Shown here one piece after another: positions 119-63,587 of a stretch of DNA of 64,000 bases. Positions within the stretch are counted from its first letter, which is position 1. Each line of letters opens with the position of its first letter. This DNA comes from Vairimorpha necatrix. Its lineage: Eukaryota. A program made the position numbers and the translations under genes. The notes under the pieces are model-generated. The model was not told the origin of the DNA. It saw only the letters and a list, made by a program, of their open reading frames with translations, and searched no databases. The stretch spans positions 434,001 through 498,000 of the forward strand of contig CP142727.1 in NCBI GenBank assembly GCA_036630325.1, given 5' to 3'.

Positions 119-2340
119 TCAACAATTGTTTGTATTTGATAAAAAATATACAATTTCTTCAATTAATCGAACTCCTAAACTTTCATTAATAAATTGCAAA
201 ATGTCCTTTTTTTCAAGAAATGTTATGATATTCTTTATTACAACAAAGTATTTTTCTTTAATAATTTCATTATCTTGAAATTCAGATGTAAATGCTTGAG
301 CTAAAACTATATGGAATTCTTTTTTTGCACACCTTTTTACGTTTTCTTTTATATTTAATTTTAGTTCTTGACAAAATCTAGATTTTTCTCTAATTTTATA
401 CTCATTTATTGTGTCTTTTTTGATTAGACTATTTGTTAAATGAGTCTGAAAAATATCTTCAATAATATTAATTCCCGCATATAATTGTTTTTCTTCAAAG
501 TCGATTCTTACATCATCATAAAATATATTTTTTATTTCTTTATTAGAAACTTCTGCTAACAATTTGGATATTTTGTCTTTCAGCGTCGTTTTTAGTAATA
601 TATTTATTATAGTTTCTGTCTCAATTTCTTTTCTTATTCTCTCTCTCTCATAGATCTCATCTTCAAAAATATTTTTTAATAACATGTTTTTAAGAATTTC
701 ATTGTTCCTTATAACTTCAGCACTATTAACCTCGATAGATTCGATAACGATTGATCTATCAACATTATCATTTTTAATATAGTATATACAAGTTACATTC
801 TCTATTTTCGAAAATAATGAAGTTACTTTACAAAAAAATTCTAAAACATCTTCTTTAAGAATCAAAAGTTCATCAATTTTTATATTTAATATAGCTTGAA
901 TAAGGCTTTCTGAGTTTATACCTTTACTATTAGATATTAATGTATATGATTCGTCGCCTTTCAGAGAAATAATATGCATTCCAAGCGTTTTTAAAAATTT
1001 AAATATTTTATCTTCTAACAAATGATTTTCATTTAAATACGTTTCTGCTTCTATTAGTATACAAATTTCGACTAAGTATATGATTGGACAATTAAAATAA
1101 ATTATTGTCATCTCTAAATAAAATGTTATGTAGTCAATTAAAGTTTTCATGTCATTCACGTTTAGTGTTTCTGTTCCTATTATTTTATTCAAATTTCTTT
1201 CGTTTATTACATCAGCAAAAAAAAGCAGATGTGCAAATATCAAATTCATAGCCGATCCTGTGTTATAAAGTATTCTATTTACGATAAATCTTATCTTTTT
1301 GTGGTTCTTTAATAATCCAAAAAAGAATTCTATACCTTTTTCCTTGTCCATGTTTTCAATAAAGAAATATTTTCCAGGATTTTTCGAAATTCATCAAAGC
1401 ATTCTTTGTTTATTATTTTTTTTTCGTCGTTGCAATTTTTATCTTTTCTTATTATATATTTGTATTCTTTATTATTCTCTTTAAAAATTATATATTCGTA
1501 TCGAATCTCAATTTTACAAGCAAAAGTTTTCATTACAATCTTTGTAGACTCGCAAATTATAACGTTTTCAGGAAGTGGCTTTTTTACTTTTTCATATTCG
1601 AAACCCATACTTAAGACAATTAAAGAATTGAGCAGTACTTCTTCTAAATTTTCTTTATTAATGAAATTTATTTTAATTAAAGGGTAAAATTCTTCTGCGT
1701 TTAACTCGAAGAAGAAACAGTAATTGTGAACATCAATTCTAAATCTAATAATTCTTTTATTATCATATTCTCGCAATACGCAATCAATAGTAGAAGCAGG
1801 AAATATGAACTCAGAATCTATGTCATAGAAAGGCGGTTTAATATAATTTATCATCTGGTTTATATGGCTAGCCTTTTCACTTATACTGCTGAAATAAATT
1901 TCCCAGGCTTTCTTGGCCTTTCTTCGTTGTTCATTTATCTTTGTTATATTTTCGATTACCGATTTAAAAAATTCGTAAAATTTTAGATCTAACGAGTCGT
2001 ACAACAAAATTATAGAATTATCATATGTTAATCCTATAATGCTTCTTAAATTTTCTTCAATTTCAACCGTAATATCATCCACAGATCTATTTTTATAATT
2101 AATTTCAAACTGTATTTTTTTTTAAAAAATATTTGTGCATGGTTCCATTTCAACTACACATTTTAGAAAAGTACTACCTTTAATATTATGCATGTATACC
2201 TTAAAATATCGTTTAAAAGGATAGAATTCATCATAATCTTTAAGTTTTATTTTGTTTGTTACAACTTCAAAGAATCTATCGTATAACTTTATATCAGCAT
2301 TTACAAATTTGAAAGCAGTTAATAATTTAAGGAAATTCAT
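119..2340 (-). pseudogene. Disrupted ~740-codon lineage-specific gene, possibly secreted
   Basis: ATG 2340 is preceded by CCC and begins a hydrophobic N-terminus (MNFLKLLTAFKFVNA). ORFs 2340-2122 and 2082-1330 are in the same frame, separated by one TAA at 2124-2122. ORF 1351-119 follows after a frameshift between ~1352 and 1395. No recognisable domain. Confidence 0.6.
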
Positions 2341-3320: not shown

Positions 3321-3797
3321 AAATCTTTTAAATGTATTAATAATTGAATGATATAACATTAAACCTATAAAATATAAAAAGAACAAAAATGAGGTATGAA
3401 GTGATCATAACTATAAAAAGATCAAATTGCGTGGTGTCTAATAAAACATTGTTTTTATGTATATAATTATTAACATTGACTTCGTTTTATTCTTAAATAT
3501 AATTGTTTCTGAAAAAAATTCAAGTTAAGAAGAAAATATAACTAATTGAGACCATGCAGGGCTTTAATGGAATGGATAAATCAGTAAAAAATTATAATTA
3601 AGAACATAATAAAACAAACATTATTGAAACAAAACATAGTCATTCTTTAGGATTTACAATAAAAGACAAGAACATTGATTGAATAAAAATAACTAATACC
3701 TCTAAAAGTATAAAAATATAGACTCAAACAATGTTTAACAAAAAAAAGTCATTTATATTAATAAAACTTAATATATTGATTTTAAGAGATAAAAAAC

Positions 3798-3900
3798 TAA
3801 AATTTTTCTTTGGACTTTTTTAGTTATCAGAAAAGGAAATATAAAAAATCAAAATTATTTATTGGACTTTTTTAGTTATAAAAAAAGGAAATATGAAAAA
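3798..3900. repeat. Imperfect tandem duplication, ~52-bp period
   Basis: TTGGACTTTTTTAGTTAT(C/A)A(G/A)AAAAGGAAATAT(A/G)AAAAA occurs at ~3810 and ~3862. Confidence 0.7.
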
Positions 3901-9257: not shown

Positions 9258-10193
9258 TAACAAAAAAAATATTTTCTATTTTTCTAATATATTAAAAAAA
9301 TTAAATTTACATTTTAATGTTTATCAGGTTCTAGGCATGAGTAATAAATTAGTTCAAAATACCTAAAATCTAGTCTTGTTTGCATCTTATCTCCATCTTT
9401 TCTATGTTTGATACTTTATTTGTTTTTTTAATATCAAATCTTACTTATAAAAATTTCAATTTCTTTATGCTCCTAAAAACAAAAAAAAACATAATATGTT
9501 ATAATAATAAACTTATAAAGGGTTAAAGGCAAATCGTTGGTGTATATCTTAAAAATCTAGAGCGCGTTTTTTTGTTTACATTAAAAATAAATATATAATA
9601 GTAATATCGTCTTCTAAATTATTTTTTAGAATATTTTTTTTAAAATTTATATAAATAAACACGCAAATCTGGTTTAAAATAAAAGCAAGTTTTTTTTCTT
9701 ATATATGAAAATATTCAGCTTGTAACTTAGTAAAGTATATATAAAATTTTTTATAAATGGAGTAAGGAAATTTGAAAAACTCGAAAGCAAATCTTTTATT
9801 AAGTCTTTTAGAATTTGAATAAATAGAGCAACCATTTAAGTCGATAAAAAACAAAATTTAAGATGATTGTAATTCAATATTTACGTGTTAAAAAATTATA
9901 TTTTTGGTTCAGCAAAATTTAATTAATTAAATTTTTTTTTCGTGTTGTAAATAAATGATCTAGTTAAAGAATTATTAGGTTTATTTTAATTGATATTGAC
10001 TTCAGAACAATGTTAATTCGTACTAATATTCACCATTTGGTATTATAATATCTTCTTATAGTAATTTGTCAGCAAATTTTGAGCTATCATTGAAAATATA
10101 TTTTAAACTGTAAAATCTATCAGTACTTAACCACATTTTTGACTGTAAAGACAAAAAAAAATAGTTACTTAAATTGATTAAGTTAATATAATA

Positions 10194-10231
10194 TGTTAAC
10201 CATTTATTTATTAAGGGTTCTAAACCCTACA
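10194..10231 (-). repeat. 3' LTR of element 1 (38 bp)
   Basis: TG...CA ends, adjacent to the PPT. Contains the polyprotein stop codon (TAG, 10222-10220). Confidence 0.95.
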
Positions 10232-13200
10232 TCCCCCCTCCAGACGGGTAGTCTCTCCATCTTCTAAACAACTCTTCCTTATCTCTTTCAAATCATAATG
10301 CCTCTTTTTAACAATTTTACCATCCAGTAGTCTCACAATATATGAATCATTTTCACTTATAGCTACGATCCTTCCGCGACCCGTGAATCTTCCCTTGTCT
10401 GTTTTCGCACGTGTACCTAAATTTTCTCTCCTAGCGATTCTTACCTCTTGGCCTACTGTAAATGTCTCTCTGTGTCTTCTCTTGAACCGACCAGCATATT
10501 TTCCATTTTCATCATTTTCAATTATAACTTCAGCAGTTTGATCTCTCCACGCTTCCATCGGCGTACATTTTATTGCTGTATGTAGTGTATTATTATATCC
10601 TTTGATTGCTCTTTCTATCTTTTCAGAAATATTCCCATCATTTTGCTTTATCAATGTCTCTCTTATAGTTCTGATGCATCTCTCGATTCTACCATTACTC
10701 CTATGAGCTTCTAAGCCCACTTTCCTATGTTTAATATCATTAATACTACACCATTCTTTAAATCTATTACTTACAAACTCTTTTCCGTTGTCTGTCACAT
10801 ATTCCTCTGGAAAACCATCTTCCCTTATCCACTTTTGTAATACCTCTATAACTTCACTACTCTCTTTACATCTCAAATTCGAACCCCACAACCTTCTAGT
10901 AAAGTAATCAATACCCAGTAACACATACATATTCTCTCCACCTATGTCCATTAAATCCAACGCCACTTTCTCCAATTTCTTTCTAGTTACTACAAAATCA
11001 CATCCTCCTGTGTTTTTCCTATTGTTAATCCCACATATTTTTCAATTCTTAATTACCTTATTAATATGATCTTTCATACCAGGCCAATACCATCTTTGTT
11101 TAATGTTATAATAAGTGCCTTTGACACCTCTATGGTTTAACTCCTCATGTACTCTTGTTATTTCATGTTCTCTACTATCTAGGCTCAATATCTCTTTCAC
11201 CTCACCTGTGGAAAATTCCCAATACTGTTTACCGTCCTTTTCTTTAATATGTTTCTGCTTTTTTCCCAAAATTTGTTTTTCGATCACTTCTTTTCTCTTG
11301 TTGTCCTTTTCTTTTTGTTCATCCGAAACTTCTACCTGATCATACTGCCTGCTTAACGCATCTGCATCTGTCATCAACTCCCCTTTCACATACTCTATTG
11401 TAAAGTCAAACTCTTGTATCTGTTCTACCCATCTGTTTATTCTGTTATTATTGAAGTATGGCTTATTTCTGATCTCTGCTAATGCTTTATGATCCGTCAT
11501 CAAATGAAATTTCCTTCCTCTCAAATCACTTTCAAACTTCTTTATTCCAAAAAACACCGCCAACATCTCCTTCTCACTTATCGTATATCTTCGCTCGGTA
11601 GGAGTCAACATTTTCGATGCCCATTGTATCGGAATCCACTCACCCTCTTTATTTTCTTGTAATAGAATTGCTCCGATCCCCGTATCACACGCATCAGTTC
11701 TTACTCTAAATAGCTTTTTTCCGTCCGGAATCTTCAACTTTTTCATATCTCTCAAGCCTTGCTTCATATCCTCAAAGGCTCTTTCCATATCCTCCGTCCA
11801 ATTCCACTTAACATCTTTCTTTAAAGCCTCAGTAAGCCTTACTGTTCTATACGCATAGTTGGGAATAAAGTCTCTAAACCAACCAGTTAGTCCTAAAAAT
11901 CTTCTTAACTCTCTAACATTCTCAGGTTTTCTATATTCCAATGTCTCCTGCTTTTTAATCTCATTCGGTCCCATGACCTCCCCATTAATTGTTACTCCCA
12001 GCAACATCACCTCATCTTTTTTGTATTGTATCTTTGTTTGGTTTATTCTCAACCCACACTCTTTAAACTTTTTAATTACCCTCTCTAGTAACTCGTCATG
12101 CACTCTTACGTCTTTACCATGAATAACTATATCATCCATATATACTTCCACGCCTTTACCTCTGAATTCATCTAAAACTCTGTTCATTACTCTCTGCATT
12201 ATATGAGGCGAATTCTTAAACCCCATAACCATACTATTCCATTCGTATACTCGACCATTCACTTCAAATGCTGTTTTGTGCTTATGGTGCTCCTCAATCT
12301 CAATATGATAAAACCCTTCTTTTAAGTCGATAACCGTAAATACTTTTGACCCCTGTGTGGCTCTCATAATATCCTTAATTAACGGTAGTGAGTACGGGTC
12401 CTTGTCAACCAAATCGTTTAACGCCATCAAATTGCTTACCAATCTTACGTCCCCATTTGGTTTTTCAAGTGCTCTTATTGGACTCCTCCACTCACTTTTG
12501 GAACGTCTTATAACCCCTCTATTTTCCAACTTATTCAAGTACTCCTCAAATTTCACCCTAAGGTAGTATGGCACATTCTGCCCTCTTTTCACAACCTTTT
12601 CACCTTGCTTAGTATTTATTGGACACTTCTCTCCTGTGAGATATTTTATCTTTTCTTCTGATTCTTTAAAAACTTCCGGATACTTTTCAATTAAATTTTC
12701 TAACTTATTTACTGTTTTACATCTTTTCCCTTCATTGTTGATAATTGGTTCTTTCTGTAAAACTTGTTCCTTTTTAATTTTATATTTTTCCCTACCAGCT
12801 ACACTTTCATGACATTCTCTAGCGTAATGCCCTTCTTTCTTACATATAAAACATTTTGTAGTTTCTCTGATTTCTCTTCTTTTCCTATACATCCTAAGAT
12901 TTTCTTTTCTTTCTTCCCTAAACTCTTTCAACACTTTATCCATAATCTCTTTAATCATTTCTTGTCTTTCTTTTGACTCTCTCTCAAATTCTGCTCCTTT
13001 TTGTAAGCCTTTATAAATTTCCTCCCAACTGCTCCTTCCGTCACAAAAATTTTCAAAAATATAATCCTGCAAGTTCGCAGATGCCAAATCCATAACATCT
13101 TTCCACTCAACTTTCTCAACTTTCAATATTAACTTTAGTCTCTTATCTATCCTAATTGCCTCTTTCTCTAATGTTCTAGCCTCTTGACTACGGGACTCTC

Positions 13201-13240
13201 TTGTTTCCCTGTTCATCCTTGTGTTCGCCATGTTAACCAT
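10220..13240 (-). pseudogene. Single Gag-RT-RNaseH-integrase polyprotein of element 1 (1006 codons, one premature TGA)
   Basis: CCHC knuckle CFICKKEGHYAREC, RT YMDD, RNase H TDA...E...TDH...DALSR, and integrase D,D(35)E (VALDL/TDNG/SNGRIER). The two listed ORFs are in frame, with TGA at 11044-11042 replacing the first Cys of the integrase CxxC. Confidence 0.92.
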
Positions 13241-13268
13241 TTATTTATTAAGGGTTCTAAACCCTACA
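13231..13268 (-). repeat. 5' LTR of element 1 (38 bp)
   Basis: Minus strand TGTAGGGTTTAGAACCCTTAATAAATAAATGGTTAACA, followed directly by the TGG PBS. Confidence 0.95.
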
Positions 13269-13352
13269 TAATATATAAAATTTTTCTTTTATTGATGCAA
13301 TGCACTAGTCTTGATATTATATTGTAACTATAAAATTTGAACATGTATACAC

Positions 13353-16300
13353 TGTGTTTATTTTCCATAATGAGGGGTAAAAATAATAAGGATATATAAC
13401 ATCCCCCCTCCAAGACGGTAGTCTCATACTAGAACTCATTAATCCCAAGCAGACCTTTAAAATCATAATGCCGCTTTTTCACGATCCTACCATTTTCCAA
13501 ACTAACTAAGTACGAGTCACCTCCGCAAACTTCCTTGATAACACCATATCCTAAAAACCTTCCTTTCTCATACTTACTACAACCCAATAAGTTCTCTTTC
13601 TTCGCTACCCTAACTCTCTGACCTTTATAGAATTTCTCTCTTTTGCGAGCCACAAACCTCCTACTATAAAATCCTTCAGGTCCATTCTCGATCATAACAT
13701 GGCCCGTTTCGTCTCTTGAGGCCTCAAACGGTGTACATCTCAACCCTTCATGATAGCTGTTATTATAACGCCATATACATCTATTAACCTTGGCTTCAAA
13801 ATCCACAGCATCATCTTTCAATATTCCTTCTCTTATGGTTCCTATTACCCTTTCCACTCTTCCATTACTTCTATGACTTTCTACGCTTACTTTCCTATGT
13901 AATACATTTTCCTCTGAACACCAATTCCTCATATATTCATTACTAAATTCTTTACCGTTGTCAGTAATTATTTCTACCGGTTTCATTCCTGATCCACACA
14001 ACTGTTTTAAAAATCCTACAACCGAGCTTCCGCGTTTGTCCTCTATTACTTTTCCCCAAACGATCCTAGTATAATAATCAATCACGACCAACACATATTT
14101 CCCTAAATCTCTAAACTCAATCAAATCCAAAGCAACCTTTTCCAAATAAAATCTTGAACTAACAAAATCACAACCACCACTCTTTTTCCTATTATGTATT
14201 TGGCAAACTTCACACTTTTTTAAAACATCCTCGATATCCTTCTTCATACCCGGCCAATAAAATTCAAACTTCATTGCATAGTACACTGGTCCTAAACTTC
14301 TATGTCCCAAATTTTCATGAGCATTGACAATTAAACCTTCACGCAATTCTTTCTTTGGAATCTCCGCTTCTCTACCAGAGTCAAATACCCAAATTTCCTT
14401 TCCATCAACAACTTTAACATGCTTGTCCCATTTACCCTGTGCCTGTTTAATACTTCTCTCCTTATTCATTAGCGTTTTCTCATTTTCATGTACCCTACTC
14501 AGTGCATCTGCTACAACCATGGTACTAGGCTCTCTATATTCAATGCTAAAGTCGAACTCTTGAATCTTTTCAATCCACCTGTTAATTCTATTATTGTTAA
14601 ATGCTGGTTTATTTCTAATCTCGATCAATGCCTTATGATCAGTTTCTACCCTAAATCTTCTTCCGCGTAGTTCATATTCAAACTTTTTAATTCCCCAAAA
14701 GACTGCATACATCTCCTTCTCACTGATTCCATATCTCTTTTCCGTAGGCGTAAACTTTTTTGATGCCCACTGTACTGGTACCCAATTACCTTGATCATCT
14801 TCCTGCATTAAAACAGCACCCATTCCAACATTACTCGCATCCGTGCGTAACAAAAATTCCTTATTATAATTAACAATTGCTAAACCTTTTAAATCCCTAA
14901 TCACTTCCCTTAAACTAATATATTCTTTTTCCATTTCTTCTGTCCATTTCCAATTACTTCCTCGTCCTTTAAGAGAATCCGTCAACGCCAATGTACGTTT
15001 TGCATAATTATCAATATGATTTCTAAACCATCCAGCCAGCCCAAGAAACTTCCTAACATCTGATACACACTCCGGTTTGGGAAATTCTAACGCTTCATTT
15101 TGCTTTATTTCAGATGGCAGTATCTCCTTGCCATTAACTGTTACTCCTAACAACATCACCTCTCGTTTACATAATTGAACCTTAGCCAAATTAATTTTCA
15201 TATTATTCTCCTCTAATATATCCACAGCCTCTTTCAACAATTTGTCGTGACCCTCTCTTGTCTTACTATGAATCACAATATCGTCCATATAAATTTCGAT
15301 TCCCTTACCAATAAATTTTTCAAAAATCCCATTCATTATTCTTTGTAATATCTGCGGAGAGTTTTTAAACCCCATGACCATCGAATTCCACTCGTATACC
15401 TTTTTATTAAACTCAAAAGCCGTCTTAAACCTATCCTTCTCTTCATCTCAATACTATAAAACCCCTCCTTTAGATCTATCACGGTAAAAAATTCAGATCC
15501 CTGTGTACTTCTAATAACATCTCTTATCCTAGTTAACTCATAAGGGTCCTTCTCTACAATGTCATTAAGAGCAATTAAAATACTTACTAATCTTATATCA
15601 CCATTCGGTTTCTCAATCGCTCTAATGGGATTTCTCCAGTCAGATGTCGACCTTCTAATTATCTTTCTTCTTTCCAAACTATTAATATAATCTTCCGTCT
15701 TCTTCAACAAAGCCTGAGCTATAGCCTGCCCTTTTTTAACAACTTTCTTGCCTTCTTGAGTCTTGATAATACATTTTTCAACCTTACAAAAACTAATATC
15801 TTCATCCTCTCTTCCTCCTACCCGTGAAATAATCTCCTCTAAATACGCGATGCCTCTTACATCCCTTCTCAACAGAACTCTCTTATTATTGTCCCTTTTG
15901 CTATAATCTTGTATATCCCCTAAATTTTTCTTCTTACGTTTTCCACCATCAACATTATAATAATCACATTTGTCCGAATTGGAATCGTCATCAAATTTAC
16001 CCCCTAAGTCTAATTGCACTTTACATTTACCAACATAATTAAAACTACTTTTATTTCTTCTGTCTTCAGAATCTCGCCTCATTCCCCTACAAAATCTAAC
16101 ACTATGGCCTAACTTCCCACAATTGTAGCAACGCATATTCTTTTTATTTTCCTCACGAGACAACTTATTCTTCTCCTCAAATTTAGCCCATAACGCTAGG
16201 GACAACTCTTCAAATTCTTTTTTTCTCACTTGTTCCTTTTCCTCCTGAATAGCTAGCAACTCTAATTTTTCCTCAATTTCCTTCCAACTACCCTCTTGCG

Positions 16301-16535
16301 AGATCCTCTCAACAATAAAATTTCTCAATAAAATAGAACCTCTCCTAAAAATTTCTAACTTAAATCCACACTCATCAATTTTCTCTAAAAACAACTCATA
16401 AACAATCCTTTTAACCTCTTTTAATAATATTCTAGCCTCTTGGCCACGGTCCTCCTTTGTAGACCCATTTTCTGGTATCGCCCCCATGTGTTTATTTTCC
16501 ATAATGAGGGGTAAAAATAATAAGGATATATAACA
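13353..16535 (-). mobile_element. Ty3/Gypsy-type LTR retrotransposon, element 2 (3183 bp, 49-bp LTRs)
   Basis: Identical repeats TGTGTTTATT...ATATATAACA at 13353-13401 and 16487-16535. TSD TACAC at 13348-13352 and 16536-16540. PBS TGGGGGCGATACC and PPT GGAGGGGGGA. Confidence 0.97.
13429..16502 (-). pseudogene. Gag-RT-RNaseH-integrase polyprotein of element 2, one 1-bp frameshift in RT
   Basis: CYNCGKLGHSVRFC knuckle, YMDD, HHCC and DDE motifs. FYSIE(I)EEKDRFKTAFEF is restored by adding one base near 15445, which joins ORFs 15336-16502 and 13429-15381. Confidence 0.92.
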
Positions 16536-17361
16536 TACACTATTAATATGTAATTACTGTATAAATATGTACTATTTCAACCACTTATTCTTACTTTTCT
16601 GATATACAGTGTATTTTTTATTTTAGATATTACTTATATTAAAAATTTTAATGCGCATAAGGTATAATAAGATGTATTTTTTTCTCATTGTTTATTCTTA
16701 AAAATCAAATTCTGGCTATGATCAATAAATAATATAAAAAACAAAGTACATTTTTGTCAAGAAATAATTGAGGTCTATTAATTCTTTTTAAACATAATTC
16801 TTTTAAAAAAAAGAAGATGTTTAATTGCATTTTTTATAAGTTTTAATTCACATTTGTGAATTAATTTTCTTTATTTGATCAAAACAAATATTCATAAAAC
16901 AATGTTAACATTTAATTTTAAATTTAGAAAAGGAGACAATTTTTACCAATTTTTAAATAATAAAAAATTTATGAATGGTTAATGAATTTATTTATAGTAG
17001 AGTCGTGTTTTCAAGTAGAATAGAAAAGAATATCTTTAAGGTTATTTTTTCAATTGAATTTATTGCTATACAAACAAACAGTATTGTTTATATTTCATTC
17101 GGAAGAATAAATTTTAATAATAAGAGCCTTAAATCATCAGATTTTTTTGGACATATGTTTGTAGTCATTTTATTATTGAAAATATATATGCTTACTCAAA
17201 GTTTTAAAACTTTTGTATAAACAACATCATTAATAAGCACTTCCTAAAATATGCAATTCATATAGTATATTAGAATAAATGAAAAAATTGAGGACAAAAA
17301 TAAATTATAATTAATAAAATTGTAAAATATGAAAAACGGTGTAAAAATTTAGTTAATGAAT

Positions 17362-41545: not shown

Positions 41546-42335
41546 GGGGCTCTTAGCACAGTGGTAGAATGCAATGCTTCCATTGAGCAATGGCCGGGTT
41601 CGATTTCCAGGGGCACCAAAATTGGTTCTACTTTCTATAATGCAGTTGGAACAACTCAGATGATGAAAATGTCCACGATAATCATTAAGTTGATTCAATG
41701 AAACTTTGTAAGTCCAGCCACAAGGGGATTATCATCTAGTGTAGAAACGCACCTCAAAGCCAAAAAGCAGTATCACTCTTTGGTGACTTAATGATACATA
41801 AAAGTATCTAATGGGTACGGACTAGTTGGAGCCCATGGCTGGTGCACTCTAGAGTCGTATCCTAGAGCTAACTAAGAGACTAGACGAAGTAGGGCAATAG
41901 AAGGTCTCGTGGATCCTATCCTACAAGATTCTGTAACATGGTGGCCGAACCTAGTGAGAGACTGGTGGTCAACGCAGCCCAATAAAACCGCCGGGCTGGT
42001 GATGTGGTCGTGTAAGGAGCCGTGTGTGCAATATGGATGATTGTAGGGACCTTTGAGTCAGTACGATGATGTCTCTCCTCGGGTTATAGATAACCATGCC
42101 GGTTAAGTATATCCGCTGTGAGGTCACTCTGGACGCGATTTAAGGTATAAATGGGGAGTGTTTTCCTGGAGCCAAAGTCCAATGGATACGGCGGAGCTTG
42201 CTGCACCGGCAAGTTGTATGGAGGGAGTTTTAGTGAGTACAAATCTCACAGTACCAGTTGGATGAGGATCAATCAAATCCCTCTGGTCCCTATGTAAGGT
42301 TTCTCCCTGCCTCTTACTTGCAAGAAAAAAAAAAG
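41546..42335 (+). mobile_element. tRNA-headed SINE, best-preserved copy 1 (790 bp)
   Basis: tRNA-like head 41546-41618 with A box TAGCACAGTGG, B box GGTTCGATTTCC and terminal CCA. Then a GC-richer non-coding body and an oligo-A tail. 10-bp TSD ATACAGTGGA at 41536-41545 and 42336-42345. Confidence 0.9.
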
Positions 42336-43699: not shown

Positions 43700-44481
43700 T
43701 ATTGCCTTGGCAGTGGTCGAAGGCGATGCTTAATTGAGCAAAGGCTAGGTTCGAATCTAGGGCAACCAAAAATAGGTTTACTTTCTATGCTGCAGTTGGA
43801 ACACTTAGATGATGAAAATGTCCACGATAATAATTAAGTATATTTTGAGAAACTAGTGTGCATCCAGCAATAATAAAATTGGCTCTAGTGTAAAAAAGCA
43901 CCTAAAGGTCAAAAAAATTTATCCCCCGTGGTGGCTTAATAGAACATAAAAGTATCTAATGGGTCGGGTCAAATTGGAGCATATGGCTGGTGCACTCTAG
44001 AGTGAAATCCTAGAACTAACTAAGAGACTAGACGTAGTAGGACATAGAAGGTCCTGAGGGCGCTAAATGGCCAGATTTTGTAACATGGTGGACGAAACTA
44101 GTGTAAACTGGTGGTAAACGCAGCGCAATACAAATGCCGGGCTTTTGATGTGGTAGTATAAAAAGCCTTTTATTCAATACAAATGGTTGTAGGGACCTTT
44201 GAGTTAGTACAATGATGTCTTTCATCGGGTTATAGATAACCATGCTCGTTAAGTATATCCGCTGTGAGGTCACTTTGGCCGCGATTTGAAGTATAAATGT
44301 AAAAAGTTCTCCTGGTGTCAAAAATCAAAAAATACGGCGGAGCTTGCTGCGCAGGGCAAGTTTTGTGGTAGGTGTTTTAGCGAAAAAAAAATCTTACAAC
44401 AACAGTTGGAATAAATTACATTCAAATACCTCTTGTACCTATGTAAAGTTTCTTTCTACTTGTTACTTGCAAAGAAAAAAA
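43700..44481 (+). mobile_element. tRNA-headed SINE, copy 2
   Basis: Collinear with copy 1 over its full length (e.g. GATGATGAAAATGTCCACGATAAT, TGGCTGGTGCACTCTAGAGT, TTAAGTATATCCGCTGTGAGGTCACT, TTACTTGCAA plus A tail). B box GGTTCGAATC. Confidence 0.9.
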
Positions 44482-47870: not shown

Positions 47871-48559
47871 TATTGAAAATGATAATTAGATATTTCACAA
47901 AAAGATTCTTTAATTTGAGTTTTGAATTCAAATTAATCTTTAGTTTTTCTTGGAATTTAGTTACCTTGCGTTCACCGCTGCTACCTAATAAAAATTACAT
48001 TCTTCACTTCCTTTTTTAAAAACAATACATTGGACAAGAACCCTGCATGGTCCTCTTTTTTTAATAAAAACCTTTTGATTTCCTCATAGTACTATTTTTT
48101 TATTATCCTAGTAATTCTTTGGACCAATATGAATGTTTAAGAAATTCGATTTATTATTCTTTTTTTCTTGTGATAATTTTATAAATACATTTATTAATAT
48201 CTCAACATTCTTATTTGAAACCGTCCGTTTGAAAAATACATATGTCTTTCTTTGATGGATTAATTGCATATATAAATTACAAAAGTGTAGATCATAAATT
48301 CAACACTTCGTTGTGTAATCGGTTAAAATTATTCTCACGTTTAAAAACGTATGTCTACCCTTTCCAACCATTTCTCGATCATATAATGATTTCCTCATAT
48401 TCCAAATAATATGTTTTGGGTCTTTGAGTACATAAATTAACATTCTAAACTGCTGTGATGTTCTCACGTGTTTTTATTGGTAGATAATTTTAGTATAATA
48501 TCTCATAATTCTGGCTTTTATTATAATTTTAATTGTCCGTATGTATTTTAAAATTTTAT

Positions 48560-50602
48560 TGTCCTGTATCAACGGGACTTTGCTATATTTAAAATAGCAT
48601 TCTAAATAGTTTTTAATATTATATAATTTATTGATGGTTTCTCTATTTCTCTTATACTCCATACCCTTCACAGACAGACTTTCTTTTATATTTTATTTTT
48701 AATTTATTATTTCTTGTCAACACTAAACACAAACATTGGCGTACTTACGAATGTAGTAACGACCATCCAACTTTCGTTTGTTTGTTTGTGTGACACATCT
48801 TGACAGGTCATTTGAAATGCTTGACATGTCTTTAGACATCAGTGACAGCTGATGGTTTTAGCAGCTGTCCATGTGATGTAGTAATATACATCACATTCTG
48901 CCCTCTCCTAAAGCTTTAAGTTTTGAGCCTGTCTCCATTCATTGTTATATATTGCTGACAACCCTTCATGTTTAGATATTTCATCCGGCGGTTCTACTAT
49001 TATATTATTTGTATCGTTTTTTATAGCGTTCTGCTTATTCTTTGTGTTTATATTATTTAATGATTCTTTCAGCTTATTTCTTATTTTATTCGTATTCATT
49101 TGTTTGTCTTTATCACGATATTTTATTTTTGTTAGTTTAAAATCTCTATTCCTTTTATATTCATCTTTTTTATTGTTTTTGAAGTTATTTTTCATCTTAT
49201 TGATTAACGTCTTGTCAATTTCTGTCATTCTTTCGATATTTTTATCTTTTTCTTTTAGTATTTTTGTTTCAGCTACCTTTTCACGTAGATTTTCCTGGCT
49301 AAGCGTATTCGCTTTTGTTTCATCATTTGCTGATGTTTCATGTTTAATTTTAACTTCTTTCAATTTTTTCTTATTTAAAGTTTCTTCTTTTAATAAGTCA
49401 TTATTCTCGACTTTATCTTTTGTTTCTTTAACTTCCTTCATCATGTATAGCTTTACTGGAACATCCTCTTTGACTTTTCGATGATGCGATGTTTTCCTTA
49501 GCTGTTCGGAAGTATTATTTTTTATCGTAAAGCATTCATTTGAATCGTGCGTAGTATTTTTGTGTAAACTGCACCATTTACTATTCATATAGTTATCGTT
49601 TTGATTCCTAAATCGTTCTCGATCCATGTTAATTTGTCTTTGTTTGAGACCTCGTCTCTTACCTTCTAATATAAGATATTCTTCTACTGATTCTAGATAT
49701 GCAACGATATCTTCAATTTTTTTTATTCCCAATTCTAAAATTTTTAATCTAGTTGAAAATCCTAAGCCCATAAAAAAACTTTCTCTTAGTTTTCTTTCAT
49801 ATTCCTTTCTGGTTAAACCTTCAATTCTGCTATATTGGTCAATTAAGTCTTTTAATTCTGTTAAATATTCTTTAATATATTTGAAATGTGTCTGCCTACA
49901 ATCCATTATTTTCAGCTGGAGCATTTCTGAACTCATTTTTTTAGTTAAATTTTTTTCTATAAATATTTTTATTTCTTTTAATTCTGATAAAGAAAATACT
50001 GGTTGCAACATTGGGTCTTTAATGAGCTCTCCTAAAGCTATTTTCTGTTTCTTAATATCCCAATTCTTATGTTTACTTATTTGGTTGAATTCTTCAAACC
50101 AATGTTCTAATTCAGCATGATCATACTCTCTGATGTCTGCTATTATGTCTAAGTGTTTTTCCACTTCTAAATCGATCTCCTCGATCGTGTATTTTAATTT
50201 TAATCCTTCTCTGGATTTTTTTTTTTATTTTTTCCTGCAATACAAGTTGCTCTTTGAATTCAAATTTGTCCTGTATCAACGGGACTTTGCTATATTTAAA
50301 ATAGCATTCTAAATAGTTTTTAATATTATATAATTTATTGATGGTTTCTCTATTTCTCTTATACTCCATACCCTTCACAGACAGACTTTCTTTTATATTT
50401 TATTTTTAATTTATTATTTCTTGTCAACACTAAACACAAACATTGGCGTACTTACGAATGTAGTAACGACCATCCAACTTTCGTTTGTTTGTTTGTGTGA
50501 CTCATCTTGACAGGTCATTTGAAATGCTTGACATGTCTTTAGACATCAGTGACAGCTGATGGTTTTAGCAGCTGTCCATGTGATGTAGTAATATACATCA
50601 CA
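48560..50602 (-). mobile_element. Non-autonomous Gag-only LTR element, element 4 (2043 bp, 336-bp LTRs)
   Basis: Direct repeats TGTCC...TCACA at 48560-48895 and 50267-50602, with one mismatch seen. TSD TTTAT on both sides. Purine tract AGGAGAGGGCAGAA before the 3' LTR. No RT or IN sequence. Confidence 0.93.
48908..50369 (-). CDS. Gag-like protein of element 4 (capsid-like helices, CHHC knuckle, Lys/Asn-rich tail)
   Basis: RQTHFKYIKEYLTELKDL (MHR-like), LRESFFMGL and WCSLHKNTTHDSNEC. Probably starts at ATG 50369 inside the 5' LTR and needs a one-base shift at the A11 run 50216-50226. Confidence 0.75.
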
Positions 50603-53600
50603 TTTATAATGTTAAATTTCTAAAATATATCAGAATTGCTATATTGCCCTAAATTACTTTCTTAACTTTTCATTTACCTCATAAAAATAATATTTTTTTA
50701 ATTTATTTACTAAATAAGTTTTAAAAAAATTACCGCTAAAGTTCAAGGCGAAGTTTATTAATATTATCAAATTGTATACTTATGCCCACATAACATATAC
50801 TTGTTCATACACAAATCGAACTTATAAATTTATACTTTTACTAATTCTTCGGAAGAGGTATATTAGAAATTGTATAAAAGCATATTATTTGGAAATATAA
50901 CATTTATTACGTTTTGAATCAACTTTAAATTTTAAACATTCAGAACCAAAAATAGAGTCAAGAAAAATATTAGAAAAATGTTTAAGTATTGATAGTTCAA
51001 GAATTAAAGGGCTATAAAATAATATAAATCGATTTAATAAATGTTGTAAAATAGTGCTATCAGTAAACAAATTCAAATAAAACGATAAGAACCAGTTAAT
51101 AATGAAGCTGGGACCGATGTAAAGTTTCAATCTCTATTAGGGTGCAGGAATATAATTTCAATCTAAAAGAAGGTGATGAAGTTTCTTAGAGTTCTATAAA
51201 TTACATGATATCCATTGCTTATCAGGGATAAGATTAAATCTAATACTACAAAATAAGAGTAAGTAGTTTTGATTTTATGGTCTTAAAAACACTGAACTGA
51301 TATACAGCTTTATTGTTTAAGAAAACAAACTAAGCAAAAAAAATAGTTATATTTTAGCATACAAGATTTTGAGAACTCATAAATGAGCACTTCAAAAAAA
51401 TTTAGATCACTAATAGACATAAACAAAAAAACAATATTAAATTTCACAATATGTATCAATGAGCTATTAGGTCGCAAGTATACAATATTAAATAAACGTG
51501 ATCCACATTAAAATTTTGCTGTTCCCTTGGTACAATCTATACTATCATTCTTTAAAGCCATTGTATATGTTTTTGAAGCTTTTTTATAATTTGTTCGATA
51601 ATACTAAATATCGTATTCAGTAATTTAACAAATAAAGTTTACAAACTAAAAGAATAAACCAGTATTGCTATGCGCCAAATAAAATACATCACTTTATACT
51701 AAAAAAAAAAAGAATCAAAACAGACTCATGTCATAAAAAAAATTGAACAATACATAAGATTTTTGTCAGCTATATTAATCGCCTGCGAAGTTTGATATGA
51801 TCATAAAGGGTATTTTAAATTGGTGAAAACATAAATATATACGACGATGATATGATCGTACCTGTAAAATATGCGAAAAAACATGCAAAAACCTTGAAAT
51901 TGTCTCAGCTTTAATTTTCTTAGCAAATTTACAAACAACAATTAAAATATAATCTAGATATAAGAAGAGCTAATAAGAATTATTACATTGAGAATCACGC
52001 CCAAATAAACATTTTAAATGCGAAATTTAGAATAAGAATATTATTACAAAAAAAAAAAGATAGATAATTTAGGATTTCAACAAAACTACTTTGGAGTTGG
52101 TGCTCTACTTACTGAACTTTATAATGTTAAATGAAAAAAATAATTTGAATGCAAATATGGAATTGACTAAAATAGAAATATAAAAAAGCTCGAAAACAAA
52201 ATCAAACGTGTTTCTAAGATACCTCCAAGCAATCATTTATTTTGACAGCAGATTCCATAAAAAGTTATAGGAACAACAGTGAGGACAATAATGATATAAG
52301 AGGCGTCGATTGTATTTTGAAAAAATAAACAAAAATTAAATTCTATCATAACGAAAAATAATTGCCCGCGGTGTTTTCAATAAAATCTATGACAAATACC
52401 TAAAGAGGTATGTTTCACAACTAATCACATGTGCTAAATACATGTATAACTTAACAGATACTTAAATATAAAAATAAAAATAAACGCGAATAAGACATTT
52501 AACTGTAGTATGAGTCAAAAATGTAAAATGCAACTTATAGATATAAAGAACTTATGTAAGAATGTAGAGATGAGGAGAACAAGAAAGTATATTTATATTA
52601 AGATAATTTAAGATGGGCTAATTGATCTAAAAAATAATACTTCAAAAGCAATTAGCATACGTAAAAAAACATCGCAGATTAATAGAAAATTAGATAAATA
52701 CTGTACTTATAAGAATCCCACATGGCGTCAATGTCCTGTTGTTATTTGAAGTTAACAGAAAGAATTAGATTTTAGATACAAGACATAATAATTATTTTAT
52801 CTAGATTATGAATATCTTAAGAATAAATAAAAAAAACTTTAACATTTGTGATATATTCCAAAAACTTCCCTCAAAACAGAAAGCAGTTTATTTTTGGAAG
52901 TTAGAAAACAACTATACTCATTGTTACATACTTTACAATAGATTTTTATGGAAAAAATTCATAAAAACATTTTTATAATGATATAATCAAGCAAAAGCTT
53001 CAAACAAGTAGTAAATGGAAAAATAGTAATGTAAATGGATGATTACTATAAAATAGAATATAATCATCGGTCAGCTAAGAGATTGAGATCATCATCGTGT
53101 GTGATTGAAAAAAAATAAAATAAGCATATAAGCCACACAATGAGATATCTGAAAATATTAGAAATGTTATTATGTTTTTGAATTTTTTTTTTGAAATTTG
53201 ACATTCAAAATTGATTAAATATAATAAGAACAATCAATTGGACATATAAAGGCAATGGATAACAACAAATATGCGAAATCAAATGAAATAACAGACAGGA
53301 GTTTATAAATAAATTTAGTTGAAAAACATTTCGATCTATTTAAACGAAAACAGATAAACATCTTCAGTATAAGATTTTGCTTATGTCAAGAAGGTTATGA
53401 TGCCTTATGAAATTGTCTTTATATTTCGATATTACCAAGAATGTTTGTTCAATAATAGTTGTATACATAATAAAACCGAAGTATGTAGAGTAATAAAGAG
53501 AAAATAAATTAGAAAAGAATAGTTAGTTTATTATTTATTTTTTAATTAACAAAAATGATAAATTCATTTAGAAAAATGTAATATTTCTCCCATCAACTTA

Positions 53601-58515: not shown

Positions 58516-59513
58516 ATAAATGCTTTTAAAGAAACGGTTTTTTACTTTTACAAAAAGCATGTATTATTTTTTATCATACTTAGATTTTAAAATTTTATTC
58601 TTTGAGATGAGATGCCACTAAAATAAGCATATTAATATGAGAAAATGTGATAAGAGCTTTTAAATCAATAAATTAGTTTAGTAAATTCATAAAACATGTT
58701 TGAGTTAAAAAATAAAAAATTTGAGATAAATTGTGAACTTTTATTTTTTTGATGTTTTAGCATTTATATAAAATTCCAAGAAATATTTGACAAGGACAGT
58801 CAAAATCAAATCAACATTTAATGGTAAGATTGGTGTAAATTTTATAAAAATTTATAATATTTTTGATTTTCAAGGATAGAAAAATTATCATATGATACTA
58901 AAGCTGTATGAAATTGTTAAATCTCGGCTAGCAATAGAACTTAAATAATACACCATATACTTAAAATTTTTCATGTTTATTTATATGCTTTTGGTACAGA
59001 CATTTATTTTAAAGTTTCCTGTTTAATTTAAGAAAAAAAGTCGAATTGTAAGTTAAGTGTGTGTTTATCTTAACATGGTCACAGGTTCAAAAATGAGATA
59101 TTGTGTAATAAAATGAAAGACAGAAAATTATAGTTTACTTAATGCAATATTATCGTAAGAAATTATACTACGGTAACAAATGTTTCAAAAAAAATAAATT
59201 TGTTTTTATAACGAGTCAAATTTACAAATTAAAGAAACTTTCGTCATGCGAAGAATATAATAGAAGACGTTGTAGTGACACTTTATTAGTATCACAAGAT
59301 ATTCCGATTAGAAATATATAAGAATGTGCAAGTAAATAAAGCATATAAATAAAGTATGATAGTCACTACATAGGGAGATTAGGGTTAAGGCCAAAAAAAC
59401 TTAAATGGCGTTTTTTTAAATGATTACATTTCTTTAAGATTTCTTTCTCAACAATAGTCAACAGAAGAAAACATCATAGAAAACTAAACAAAATTATATA
59501 AACTTATATTTAT

Positions 59514-62500
59514 TGTTATATATTTTTATTTTTTTGATCCCCAATTATGATAAATAAATACATGGGGGCGATACCGAATCGTGAGTTAACAAGTGTTGGC
59601 TGTGGTCAAGAGGCCAGAAGGTTATTAGAAGAGTTTAAGAGATTTGTTTATGGATTAGTATTGTCTGATTATGATTTTGAGAAAAATGTAAAGAACGAGA
59701 TTTTTGATCTTGGAACTGATGAGTTGAAAGAATTTATGGTTAAGAAAATTAAGATTGGAGATCATTGGAAAGTTATGGAAACCAAATTAGAGGAATTGGT
59801 TAAAGTACAGGAGGAAAAGGATATGAGATTACGGATGATTGAGGAGGTCACAAAGATGGTGGCAGAGGAGATTAGAAATATTAGTAGAGAGGAAAGAATA
59901 TTTGAGAAGAGAAGAACAATGAGATGTTATAATTGTTCAAGAATGGGACATAAGAGTCAGATGTGTTATTATAAATATAGAAATGTTAAGAATAAAGACG
60001 AATGTGAGAGTATTAAAGAAGAAGATAGCATAGCTGTGGTGAAAGGACTTATAGGAACACATGGGATGCTAAAAGACAAAAGAAACAAGAATGGAAGACA
60101 AGAAATAAAAGATGTTATGATGAGGTAGAAAAGAACGGTCTAACATTAGAAGACATGAGAAAGAGGTTTAGGAACGTTATAGACAACGAAGAAGAGAAAA
60201 TAAGATATTGTAAAATTGAGAAATGCAGAATCAGAACTGAAGAAGGTAAGAAAGTTGTAAGGAAAGGTCAGCAGGTGCCACAAGCGCATAAAGAAGAGCT
60301 GAGAAAATATATTCAGAGGTTAGAGACAAGGAACGTCATAAGAAGATCGACGTCGGAATATAGAAATCCGATCAAAGCTTTAATTAAGCCAGATGGAAGT
60401 ATAAGACTGGTAAGCAATCTCATGGCATTAAATGATTTAGTGGAGAAAGACCCTTATGAATTAGTGAACATTAGGGATATCATAAGGAACACGCAAGGAT
60501 CGAAGTTTTTCAGTGTTATAGACCTTAAGGAGGCTTTTTATGGAATCGAAATAGAAGAGCAAGACAAGCATAAGACTGCATTTGAGTATGATAAGATAGT
60601 ATATGAATGGAATAGTATGGTCATGGGTTTAAAAACTCGCCTCAGATCATGCAGAGAATTATGAATAAGATTTTTGAAAAACATTTGGGTGGTAAAATAG
60701 AAGTATACATGGATGATATAGTGATTCATGCGAAGACTAGAAAAGAACATGATAAATTATTTGTAGAAGCGATGAAATTGTTAGAACGGAATAATATGCG
60801 GATAAATTCAAGGAAAATTCAGTATTGCCAAAAGGAAGTCAAGTTATTGGGAGTTACATTAAACGGAGATGATATGATGCCGTCTGAAATCAAGAAAAAC
60901 GAAGCACTAGAGTTTCCAACGCCGCAGAATGTGTCTGACATAAGAAGATTTTTAGGACTGAGTGGATGGTTTCGAGGATTTATTAAGAATTATGCGGAGA
61001 AGACATTATATATGACTGAAAGTTTGAAAGGTAAAAGTAAAGTATTGAATTGGACTGATGACTTAAATAAAGAGTTCGAAAATATGAAGGAAACGTTAAG
61101 AAGTATGAGTAAGTTGAAAATTGTAAACTATGACAAGGAATTTTTATTAAGAACTGACGCGAGCAATATAGAAATGGGCGCAGTACTCATGCAGAAGAAT
61201 GATAAAGAAGAGTGGGTGCCAGTACAATGGGCATCGAAGAAATTCACCCCGACGGAAACTAGATATGGTATAAGTGAAAAAGAAATGTATGCCATATATT
61301 GGGGAATAAAGAAATTTGAGTATGAGTTAAGAGGACGAAAATTTAAAGTAGAAACGGATCACAAAGCAAAGGCGAAGATAGGAAGAAAGCCGTGTTTTAA
61401 TAATAATAGAATTAATCGATGGATTGAAAAGATCCAAGAATTTGACTTTGAAATAGATTACAGGAAACCAGAACATATGGTCGTGGCGGATGCTTTGAGT
61501 AGGATACACGAGGAGGTTGATCCAAGAAAAGAGATGATAAAAAAAGAAGTGAGCGTCAAATTGAAGGTAAATGGTTGAAACACGTCGAGACAATAGATGG
61601 TAAAGAATACTGGAATTTTGATTCGGGGAGGAAAGCATTGATTCCTAAAATAAAAGAAAGAGATGAGCTTATGAGACGTTATCATGAAGAGCATGGACAC
61701 AGAGGACTAGGAAGCATGTATTATGCAATGAAGTTTGATTATTATTGGCCAGGAATAAAAGAAGATATAGTGAAAATGATAAAAAGATGCGAGGAGTGTC
61801 AAATTTACAATAGGAAAAAGTCTGGAGGATGTGATTTTGTTGCTACAAGCAGGTATTTAGAAAAAGTGGCGTTAGATTTAATTGATTTTAGAGATAAGGG
61901 CAAATATGTATTAGTTGCGATAGATTACTATACGAGGATAGCGTGGGGATGTGTATTATACGATAAGAAGAGATCCTCTGTGGCCCAGTTTATTGAGAAC
62001 TTATGTAGGAATGGCAGGAGGCCGAAGAAAATAATAACGGATAATGGGAAGGAATTTGATAATGTTGACTTTAAGGATTTGTGAAGAAAATTGGATATTA
62101 CCCATAATAAGGTGAGTGTCGAGTCTCATAGAAGCAATGGTAGAGTTGAAAGAGTTATAGGAACGCTTAGAGAGCTAATATTGAAAATGAGTAAAGAGAC
62201 GACGAGTTTTGAAGACATAGTGATGAAAAGCTTTAAAATTTACTATAATAGTTTTCATGAAGGTATAAGAAGTACTCCCAATGAAGCGGTAAAAGACAAT
62301 ACGGGAAAAGTGATGATATTAAATGGACCAGAAGGAGACTACAGTAAAAGATTTGTTAGAAGATATAGAGAGCGGTTTATTGAAGGACAACGAGTAAGGA
62401 TAGCTAAGAAAGAAAACATCAAAGGATGTAATAAATATGAAAAGGGAAGGTTTTTAGACGAAGGTATTATAATGGTGATATGCCCTGGGGACTCGTAAGT

Positions 62501-62654
62501 TGTGAAGCTATCTAATGGGCGATATGTTAAAAAGAGACATTATGACTTGAAAAATCTGCTTGGGGTTAATGGTGATGTAGGAGACTAACCGTCTTGGAGG
62601 GGGGATGTTATATACTCTTATATTTTTGATCCCCAATTATGATAAATAAATACA
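59514..62654 (+). mobile_element. Ty3/Gypsy-type LTR retrotransposon, element 3 (3141 bp, 49-bp LTRs)
   Basis: LTRs at 59514-59562 and 62606-62654 (3 mismatches). TSD TTTAT at 59509-59513 and 62655-62659. PBS TGGGGGCGATACC and PPT GGAGGGGGGA. Confidence 0.96.
59547..62588 (+). pseudogene. Decayed Gag-RT-RNaseH-integrase polyprotein of element 3
   Basis: CYNCSRMGHKSQMC, YMDD and DDE motifs. Frameshifts in the post-knuckle linker, near 60630 and near 61545. In-frame stops at 62082-62084 and 62496-62498. Natural stop at 62586-62588. Confidence 0.9.
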
Positions 62655-63587
62655 TTTATTATTATTGATAAGGAAAATCAAAGAGTTAAATGTAGATTCG
62701 ATATCAATATAAAAAATTATATATATCATATTGAAATATGATAAAAATGCATCTGAACAAAAAGTAAATGTGTCTTTTTAGTATTTATTAATAGTTAAAA
62801 ATTTTTTATCGCCCAATAATAGAAAGTCAATAATAAGCTGTATGATTTTACCCTTTCACAAATATCAGAAAAATTAATATAAAAACGATATTTGTGTCTT
62901 TAAAGTTTTTTATTTGAAGTTTAAAGCGGAATATCGCTTTATTTACTTACATTTGTCGATAAAGTATACATTCTTTGAAAAATCGCAACGGTCAATTCCG
63001 GACAATTTCTCATTAGAAAGAATCTTAGAGAGATTTAGAAAAATAATGAAAATGATAAAATCATTTTTTTTAAAAACTTTGATGTTGCAAACAGAAATAT
63101 GCTACTATTCTATAATTTTTAGATATCCTATGCTTCTTCGATGGATTAAATCTTTCAAACCCCCGGCATTGGAGCTTCTCGTATTGTTTTCAAATATTTA
63201 TTCCTATTAGATACGATCAGGGCTTTATATCAAATTATAACATTACCTCCTTCATTTATATTAACTCATCATAAAAAACATTGCAACTTTGGCAGTTATA
63301 TTATTCGACTGCCTTGATTTATATTTACCAATGTTATACAAGTTAAAACTTATAAAAGTATTTTTTAATGAAGCATTTCCCATGAGAAAAATTCGGCGTG
63401 TGCCGTGCAATTCTCAGTTCCTTTATTCGTACTTTCTAAATATATGTCAAAAAAGTTTAATTTTAACAAGATATATGCATTCAAAGTAATTTAACAAGTT
63501 TTACGCCACAATAACCGTTTTGTTGGTTTTTTACAATCTCTACTATTTTACGGCATAAATTTTCCTTTTTTGTTGTTTTGTAAATTA

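Follow-up and report, generated by a model that had tools for sequence, protein, structure and literature searches.

Ty3/gypsy-type retrotransposons of about 3.1 kb with 38- to 49-bp long terminal repeats in the microsporidian Vairimorpha necatrix

Textbook long terminal repeat (LTR) retrotransposons carry LTRs of a hundred to several thousand base pairs and encode a two-domain capsid and a protease. In coding elements of the Ty3/gypsy type the LTRs normally measure hundreds of base pairs, and standard LTR finders work with a default minimum of about 100 bp. The closest described systems are Ty3/gypsy groups that are specific to microsporidia and encode one gag-pol polyprotein (Parisot et al. 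2014, PMC4202319); the text of that paper, figure 1A and supplements aside, gives no LTR lengths. A second text (Williams et al. 2008, PMC2474625, citing Xu et al. 2006) summarizes eight Nbr elements of Nosema bombycis as encoding polyproteins that comprise Gag, protease, reverse transcriptase (RT), RNase H and integrase. Our literature searches gave no paper on short-LTR retrotransposons of microsporidia and, in the texts consulted on microsporidian Ty3/gypsy elements, no mention of a primer binding site (PBS) or polypurine tract (PPT) lying within the reading frame. Here we analyzed a 64,000-nucleotide stretch of V. necatrix (GCA_036630325.1, contig CP142727.1, positions 434,001 to 498,000 of the forward strand; hereafter the window), which holds three elements, E1, E2 and E3, that are among the most stripped-down of the Ty3/gypsy type. 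Their family has a frame of ∼1,000 codons between LTRs of only 38 to 49 bp, encoding a Gag-like domain with a CCHC knuckle, a linker, RT, RNase H and integrase, and no protease. With one gag-pol frame and a microsporidian host, the elements belong to the published microsporidian single-polyprotein Ty3/gypsy clade.

The window is AT-rich (∼25% GC), and three blocks of 35% GC with strong strand skew correspond to the three elements. E1 (10194–13268, minus strand) measures 3,075 bp from LTR to LTR, with identical 38-bp repeats (5′ LTR, 13231–13268; 3′ LTR, 10194–10231) around an RT/RNase H/integrase frame. E2 (13353–16535, minus strand) measures 3,183 bp and has identical 49-bp repeats (5′ LTR, 16487–16535; 3′ LTR, 13353–13401), and E3 (59514–62654, plus strand) is a degraded element of 3,141 bp whose 49-bp LTRs (5′ LTR, 59514–59562; 3′ LTR, 62606–62654) are 94% identical, with three mismatches. 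Every repeat starts with TG and ends with CA. Directly outside each element is a perfect 5-bp target-site duplication (TSD), which reads on the element strand TATTA for E1 (10189–10193 and 13269–13273), GTGTA for E2 (13348–13352 and 16536–16540) and TTTAT for E3 (59509–59513 and 62655–62659); from the GC content of the window, we estimate the chance of such a perfect duplication at ∼0.003 per element. An earlier reading of the window made from the letters alone (the sequence-only reading) had described direct repeats with TG…CA ends (38 bp in E1 and 49 bp in both E2 and E3), identical LTR pairs in E1 and E2, perfect 5-bp TSDs, and a TGG-starting PBS inside one LTR with a PPT inside the other. 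The repeat coordinates confirm each of these features, PBS and PPT abutting the LTRs in all three elements. At up to three mismatches, the E1 LTR has two matches in the window and none in shuffled sequence, and the E2 LTR likewise has none in shuffled sequence; no extra copy of either, that is, no solo LTR, was found within the 64 kb at this threshold. E1 and E2 are separated by only 84 bp (13269–13352), in the same orientation and with separate TSDs, which reflects either a local clustering of insertions or a region favored as a target; no tRNA gene lies near them.

The PBS and PPT are not merely adjacent to coding sequence; in E1 they are part of it. The E1 PBS candidate, TGGCGAACA (13222–13230, minus strand), adjoins the 5′ LTR and is read as codons M-A-N-T, and the E2 candidate, TGGGGGCGATACC (16474–16486, minus strand), also lies within the reading frame, as codons M-G-A-I. 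The same site, TGGGGGCGATACC, directly follows the 5′ LTR in E3 (59563–59575, plus strand). The PPT, GGAGGGGGGA, directly precedes the 3′ LTR in E1 (10232–10241, minus strand), E2 (13402–13411, minus strand) and E3 (62596–62605, plus strand); in E1, it lies within the reading frame together with a conserved upstream block that extends to 10255. The E1 interior is thus fully coding: the frame starts in the 5′ LTR, crosses the PBS and the PPT and stops in the 3′ LTR, at LTR positions 10 to 12 (10220–10222). The ATG in the LTR (LTR position 29) is in frame with a second ATG that spans the LTR/PBS border, its A being the final base of the LTR and its TG belonging to the PBS, and the PPT codes for part of L-E-G-G. 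The block of ∼24 nt that ends in the PPT, GAGACTACC..GTCT..GGAGGGGGGA, is nearly invariant among E1 (10232–10255), E2 (13402–13426), E3 (62581–62605) and a metagenomic relative, L005 (3197–3221), the proteins of which are only 47 to 57% identical. It is better conserved than the coding sequence around it, and its first half has the potential to form a 4- to 5-bp stem. One possibility is that the block acts in cis, either in the priming of the plus strand or in packaging.

The three window copies differ in their state of preservation. The E1 polyprotein frame (10220–13240, minus strand) consists of 732 + 273 codons divided by one in-frame TGA (11042–11044), which takes the place of a Cys in the zinc finger of the integrase. 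The E2 polyprotein (13429–16502, minus strand) is split into two frames that overlap at 15336–15447, corresponding to a single frameshift at ∼15444/15445. E3 is in at least five open reading frame (ORF) pieces, the result of three changes of frame and no fewer than two in-frame stops. The sequence-only reading, which had assigned just one lesion to each polyprotein, was thus right for E1 (the stop) and E2 (the frameshift) and wrong for E3, with its at least five lesions. The 6% LTR divergence of E3 fits an older copy; E1 and E2 would be young copies, and E3 an old, decayed one.

A protein search yielded 121 matches, and the figures that follow are from the best 120 of these. The named sources among the matches listed are Nosema granulosis (best match, 73%), Vairimorpha apis, V. 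necatrix, Enteropsectra breve, Pseudoloma neurophilia and Pancytospora philotis, relatives of ∼1,000 amino acids being present in several microsporidia. Twenty-four relatives are full-length-like, and 14 of them are on contigs of 3,035 to 3,283 nt. The start ATG lies three to seven codons upstream of the M-A or M-G codon of the LTR/PBS junction in 13 of the 24 and at the junction itself in 5, with other starts in the remaining 6; a G-G-[DCMG] tail, which is the translated PPT, is read through in 8. A metagenome scan returned 37 loci, among which only L003, L004, L005, L007 and L013 are close relatives (42 to 57% identity); none of the 37 has both LTRs of one element on a single contig. On contig L005 (57% identity), the polypurine tract GGGCGGGGA is followed by a 49-bp TG..CA block, and on L004, from the same project, the identical 49-bp block precedes a TGG… site, TGGCACCCGATG. 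The similarity between the two contigs is confined to those 49 bp, which marks the short-LTR layout as a trait of the family. L004 also shows, at 900–1140, the 5′ end of an element (LTR at 1046–1094, minus strand, then PBS) abutting the start of a plus-strand relative, an arrangement suggestive of two elements head to head or of one nested in the other. A scan of genome contigs gave two loci, neither informative on LTRs: L001, of 3,024 nt, has no repeats, and L002, of 6,049 nt, is degraded. These two (68 and 52% identity) were found in bacterial bins labelled Clostridium sp. and Turicibacter sp., respectively, and are probably eukaryotic contamination.

We compared the contigs of four public runs (X1, X5, X19 and X20) with window positions 9500 to 17200. 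E2-type copies were present in all four runs at ≥92% likeness, and E1-type copies only in X19. All four runs carry an extra base behind 15444, so that the E2 frameshift is not present there and the only lesion of E2 is either private to the window copy or an assembly error; at the position of the E1 stop, the X19 contigs have a sense (Cys) codon. Two contigs from separate runs, X19 record 15 and X5 record 25, are each 3,165 nt long, which equals the LTR-to-LTR period of 3,134 nt plus 31. This is the expected output of a de Bruijn assembler for a cycle of one 49-bp LTR, the interior and the assembler word, and the contig size leaves no room for a longer LTR in these two samples. Junctions with other flanks were also evident. 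Specifically, the match of X1 record 1 begins precisely at the first base of the LTR (13353) and is preceded by 132 unlike letters; X19 records 12 and 14 diverge from E1 at 2 and 13 nt past 13268; and X20 contains more LTR-to-flank junctions. Thus, other insertion sites exist, and homology ends no more than 13 nt from the end of the short LTR. An intact protein of 1,024 amino acids, P0014, encoded on a 3,797-nt contig, is 96.6 to 98.2% identical to E2. Among the 32 differences listed between E2 and the runs, 20 are synonymous and 12 nonsynonymous (102 more lie across the compared stretch), a ratio far from the ∼1:3 expected without selection; as judged from these substitutions, the lineage is under purifying selection. 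An assembly artefact is ruled out by the finding of the same structure in four independent runs. In other samples, as far as their public runs show, the families of E1 and E2 appear to be intact and to be inserted at two or more sites.

The proposal of the sequence-only reading that the elements transpose in their minimal form, and are not deletion debris, is therefore supported by the TSDs, the lesion-free copies in the runs, the 3,165-nt contigs, the other insertion sites, intact P0014 and the 49-bp LTR of a relative with only 57% identity. What emerges is a coherent, selected and recently mobile lineage with LTRs of 38 to 49 bp and no protease.

In the E1 and E2 proteins, the Pfam domains follow the order RVT_1, RT_RNaseH / RT_RNaseH_2, Integrase_H2C2 and rve, and the order RT, RNase H, integrase is found in all 22 intact relatives. 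The RT fold matches those of cauliflower mosaic virus RT and Ty3 RT (4ol8; 26 to 27% identity). In an AlphaFold model of P0014 (mean predicted local distance difference test [pLDDT] score, 80.4), helices at residues 16 to 122 are followed by the CCHC knuckle (residues 124 to 138), a segment predicted to be disordered (residues 141 to 216, pLDDT <50), RT from residue ∼217 onward, RNase H (residues ∼520 to 660) and integrase (residues 696 to 1017). No retropepsin family was matched in any of the 22 intact relatives at E ≤ 1 in the Pfam search. The linker that joins the knuckle to RT shows no conservation and varies in length from ∼30 to 110 residues across the alignment; in several members, a retropepsin of ∼100 residues would not fit into it. 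Among the matches listed, only five relatives (P0080, P0092, P0101, P0115 and P0119) carry Pfam accessions that we take to be protease-type families; these are at most 31% identical, and none is named as microsporidian.

The Gag-like part is small, comprising ∼105 helical residues and one knuckle. The CCHC knuckle is invariant in the alignment of relatives and gave weak Foldseek rows on HIV-1 nucleocapsid, and no Gag family of Pfam was matched among the 22 intact relatives. A model of the N-terminal 144 residues (pLDDT 83.3) had as its best structural match the C-lobe of Arc (4x3x; Z 6.2, root mean square deviation 2.6 Å, 64 residues aligned). Capsid lobes occupy 12 of the 50 listed structural rows (Rous sarcoma virus, murine leukemia virus, HIV-2, HTLV-1, HERV-K, PNMA2, dArc1, Arc and Ty3) with Z scores of 4.7 to 6.2, a range in which (Z <8) a match may reflect merely a common arrangement of helices; Foldseek, run with the Gag-like model against the PDB, gave no match at E ≤ 0.001. 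As a lead only, a feature search with residues 1 to 145 placed nearest to it clusters that carry zf-CCHC (scores 0.89 to 0.94), some of the clusters having Retrotrans_gag, Ty3_capsid or Caulimovir_coat in a minority of their members. On the strength of these models, the N-terminal domain is probably a single capsid-like lobe.

The LTRs, short as they are, contain recognizable motifs. On the element strand, the E1 LTR has ACCCTT at position 14 (CCC at 15), AATAAA at 20 and the in-frame ATG at 29. The E2 and E3 LTRs have TATATAT at 4, a T-run with CCCC at 25 to 26, an in-frame ATG at 34 and AATAAA at 40. A TATA-like box thus lies at about −30 in E2 and E3, and a T-run/CCC motif 8 to 14 nt before the ATG. 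Similar features are on record for the genes of microsporidia, as far as the texts of three papers describe them. According to Cornman et al. 2009 (PMC2685015), N. ceranae genes have a T-homopolymer and CCC motif within 15 nt of the start and show a TATA peak near −27; Nosema start motifs are given as TTTTTTTACCCC for N. ceranae and ACCCTT for N. apis (2024 paper, PMC11592040); and in Encephalitozoon cuniculi, 5′ untranslated regions are shorter than 7 nt, a CCC-like motif stands just before the start, and AAUAAA is used stochastically (Peyretaillade et al. 2009, PMC2803860). The LTR motif positions fit these N. ceranae and E. cuniculi start and poly(A) features and would suit a promoter function.

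We consider it highly probable that the elements represent a microsporidian Ty3/gypsy lineage with a native transposing form of ∼3.1 kb, and we propose for it the following mechanism. The LTR would essentially be a microsporidian core promoter followed by an AATAAA signal, U3 corresponding to its first 25 to 30 nt. Transcription would start a few bases before the ATG of the LTR, leaving the last ∼10 to 20 nt for R and U5, and the 3′ end of the RNA would form at or past the end of the 3′ LTR. A tRNA 3′ end would prime at the TGG… site; the TGGGGGC start of the E2 and E3 sites resembles tRNA-Pro-type sites, as in tRNA-Pro-primed retroviruses. In some retroviruses R is as short as ∼15 to 20 nt, and strand transfer with so little homology is therefore conceivable. 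The polyprotein would act uncleaved or be processed by a protease from a source outside the element.

Several points weigh against this proposal. All three window copies are broken. The E1 LTR has no TATA-like box. AATAAA lies only 4 to 13 nt from the LTR end, so that cleavage would probably fall in flanking DNA, and its presence also in the 5′ LTR means that it must be read through there. Where transcription starts, where the poly(A) site falls and how far R extends are predictions from motif positions. No tRNA gene was found in the window or in seven loci, and the pairing of PBS and tRNA is thus a candidate one; Rfam likewise gave no match at the gathering score within the window. We know of no protease-less retroelement that is autonomous, and dependence on a helper is possible. 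Finally, nearly all Nbr elements of N. bombycis are said to encode a protease (PMC2474625, citing Xu 2006); this account either disagrees with the family of E1 to E3 or concerns other families. We only tentatively suggest, as somewhat doubtful, that the elements embody the smallest self-sufficient LTR design seen so far, with an LTR of ∼40 bp that holds no more than a core promoter and a poly(A) signal, an R of perhaps 10 to 20 nt, coding PBS and PPT, a Gag of one capsid-like lobe and a knuckle, no protease and an uncleaved polyprotein of ∼118 kDa.

The alternative that survives best accepts the architecture as real and takes the elements to be non-autonomous. They would then need a helper retroelement or a protease of the host, and their RNA might come from read-through of neighboring genes. 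This alternative would account for the lack of a detected protease and of a full capsid in the Gag-like part, and transcription overrun is described as common in microsporidia (PMC2803860). However, protease-type families are confined to the five distant relatives named above, no candidate helper is apparent, with no other retroelement in the window, RT, RNase H and integrase have been kept intact under an excess of synonymous change, and the LTRs carry host-type start motifs before an in-frame ATG. We regard non-autonomy as unlikely.

A far less probable explanation, and one largely refuted, is that the short repeats are remnants and the elements deleted derivatives of long-LTR Ty3/gypsy elements. 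The general size of Ty3/gypsy LTRs, hundreds of base pairs, would speak for it, but deletion would have to have left perfect 5-bp TSDs directly outside the short repeats three times out of three, with PBS and PPT adjoining them. The remnant explanation is also at odds with the contigs of two independent runs that amount to one short LTR, interior and assembler word, with the break of homology within 13 nt of the short LTR end at other sites, with the same 49-bp layout in a relative of 57% identity and with the reading of the frame through the PPT in 8 of 24 relatives.

Least probable of all is that these are host genes domesticated from a retroelement, as was proposed for a Pol polyprotein of Anncaliia algerae that was detected by proteomics, has a GGG motif before its start and was read, in the text of the paper, as a case of domestication (Panek et al. 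2014, PMC4072689): a microsporidian start-proximal motif does precede the ATG here, but TSDs, LTRs, PBS and PPT are present, copies occupy different sites in several runs, the element contigs of X19 are far deeper in words than the flank pieces (depth not being copy number), and all three window copies have disabling lesions. Two other classes of element are ruled out, a pararetrovirus by the presence of an integrase, and DIRS or Ngaro by the lack of a tyrosine recombinase and by direct LTRs with target duplication.

Additional repeats lie elsewhere in the window. A perfect 300-nt direct repeat (48559–48858 and 50266–50565, spacing 1,707 nt) is continued by an identical 26-nt palindrome at each copy (48871–48896 and 50578–50603), and between the copies is a 367-codon ORF (48908–50011, minus strand) with no Pfam match; the pair could be a recent tandem duplication or another repeat-bounded element. 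Three collinear direct-repeat blocks (41654–42209 and 43803–44355), 82 to 85% identical and ∼2,148 nt apart, suggest an older tandem duplication of ∼2.1 kb, and a 52-nt unit occurs twice in tandem at 3789–3892, with 87% identity between the copies. The Brr2/Slh1-type helicase gene of the window is nearest to that of Vairimorpha bombi (57%), which assigns the genome to the Nosema/Vairimorpha clade.

These data indicate that a natural lineage persists with LTRs of 38 to 49 bp, no detectable protease and almost no noncoding DNA. Standard LTR finders set to a 100-bp minimum would miss elements of this kind, and the retroelement content of microsporidia may therefore be under-annotated. If the mechanism set out above holds, the elements would show how small the LTR replication scheme can become where host promoters are tiny, and would offer a natural scaffold, pared down to a minimum, on which to study strand transfer across a very short R and the workings of an uncleaved Gag-Pol; if they are also self-sufficient, they would set new lower bounds on the LTR, the Gag and the processing needed for retrotransposition. 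Neither the minimal architecture nor the assignment of the LTR as a core promoter appears in the texts consulted; both may already be contained, without being spelled out, in a figure or supplement, in Repbase or in the paper of 2006.

Among known systems, the elements are most like the groups of Parisot et al. and Nbr1 to Nbr8, with which they share the microsporidian host, the order RT, RNase H, integrase and the fusion of gag and pol into a single polyprotein. Compared by description only, they differ from Nbr in that a protease is listed for nearly all of the latter (PMC2474625), whereas none is detectable in the family of E1 to E3. With Ty3 of Saccharomyces cerevisiae they have in common a 5-bp TSD, TG..CA ends, a tRNA-type PBS, a PPT and the order RT, RNase H, integrase. 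In Ty3, an element of 5.4 kb whose LTRs measure 340 bp, GAG3 and POL3 are separate frames, the capsid has two lobes and a protease is encoded; in contrast, E1 to E3 measure 3.1 kb, have LTRs of 38 to 49 bp and a single frame, and encode a candidate capsid-like domain of one lobe but no protease. Unlike the capsids of retroviruses and Arc, the family would have one lobe and not two, followed by a 50-residue helix, a comparison in which all Z scores are below 8. Finally, in their small size and short terminal repeats the elements resemble terminal-repeat retrotransposons in miniature (TRIMs) and large retrotransposon derivatives (LARDs). TRIMs have no coding capacity and LTRs of ∼100 to 250 bp, whereas the family of E1 to E3, set against TRIMs and LARDs alike, encodes a full RT, RNase H and integrase.

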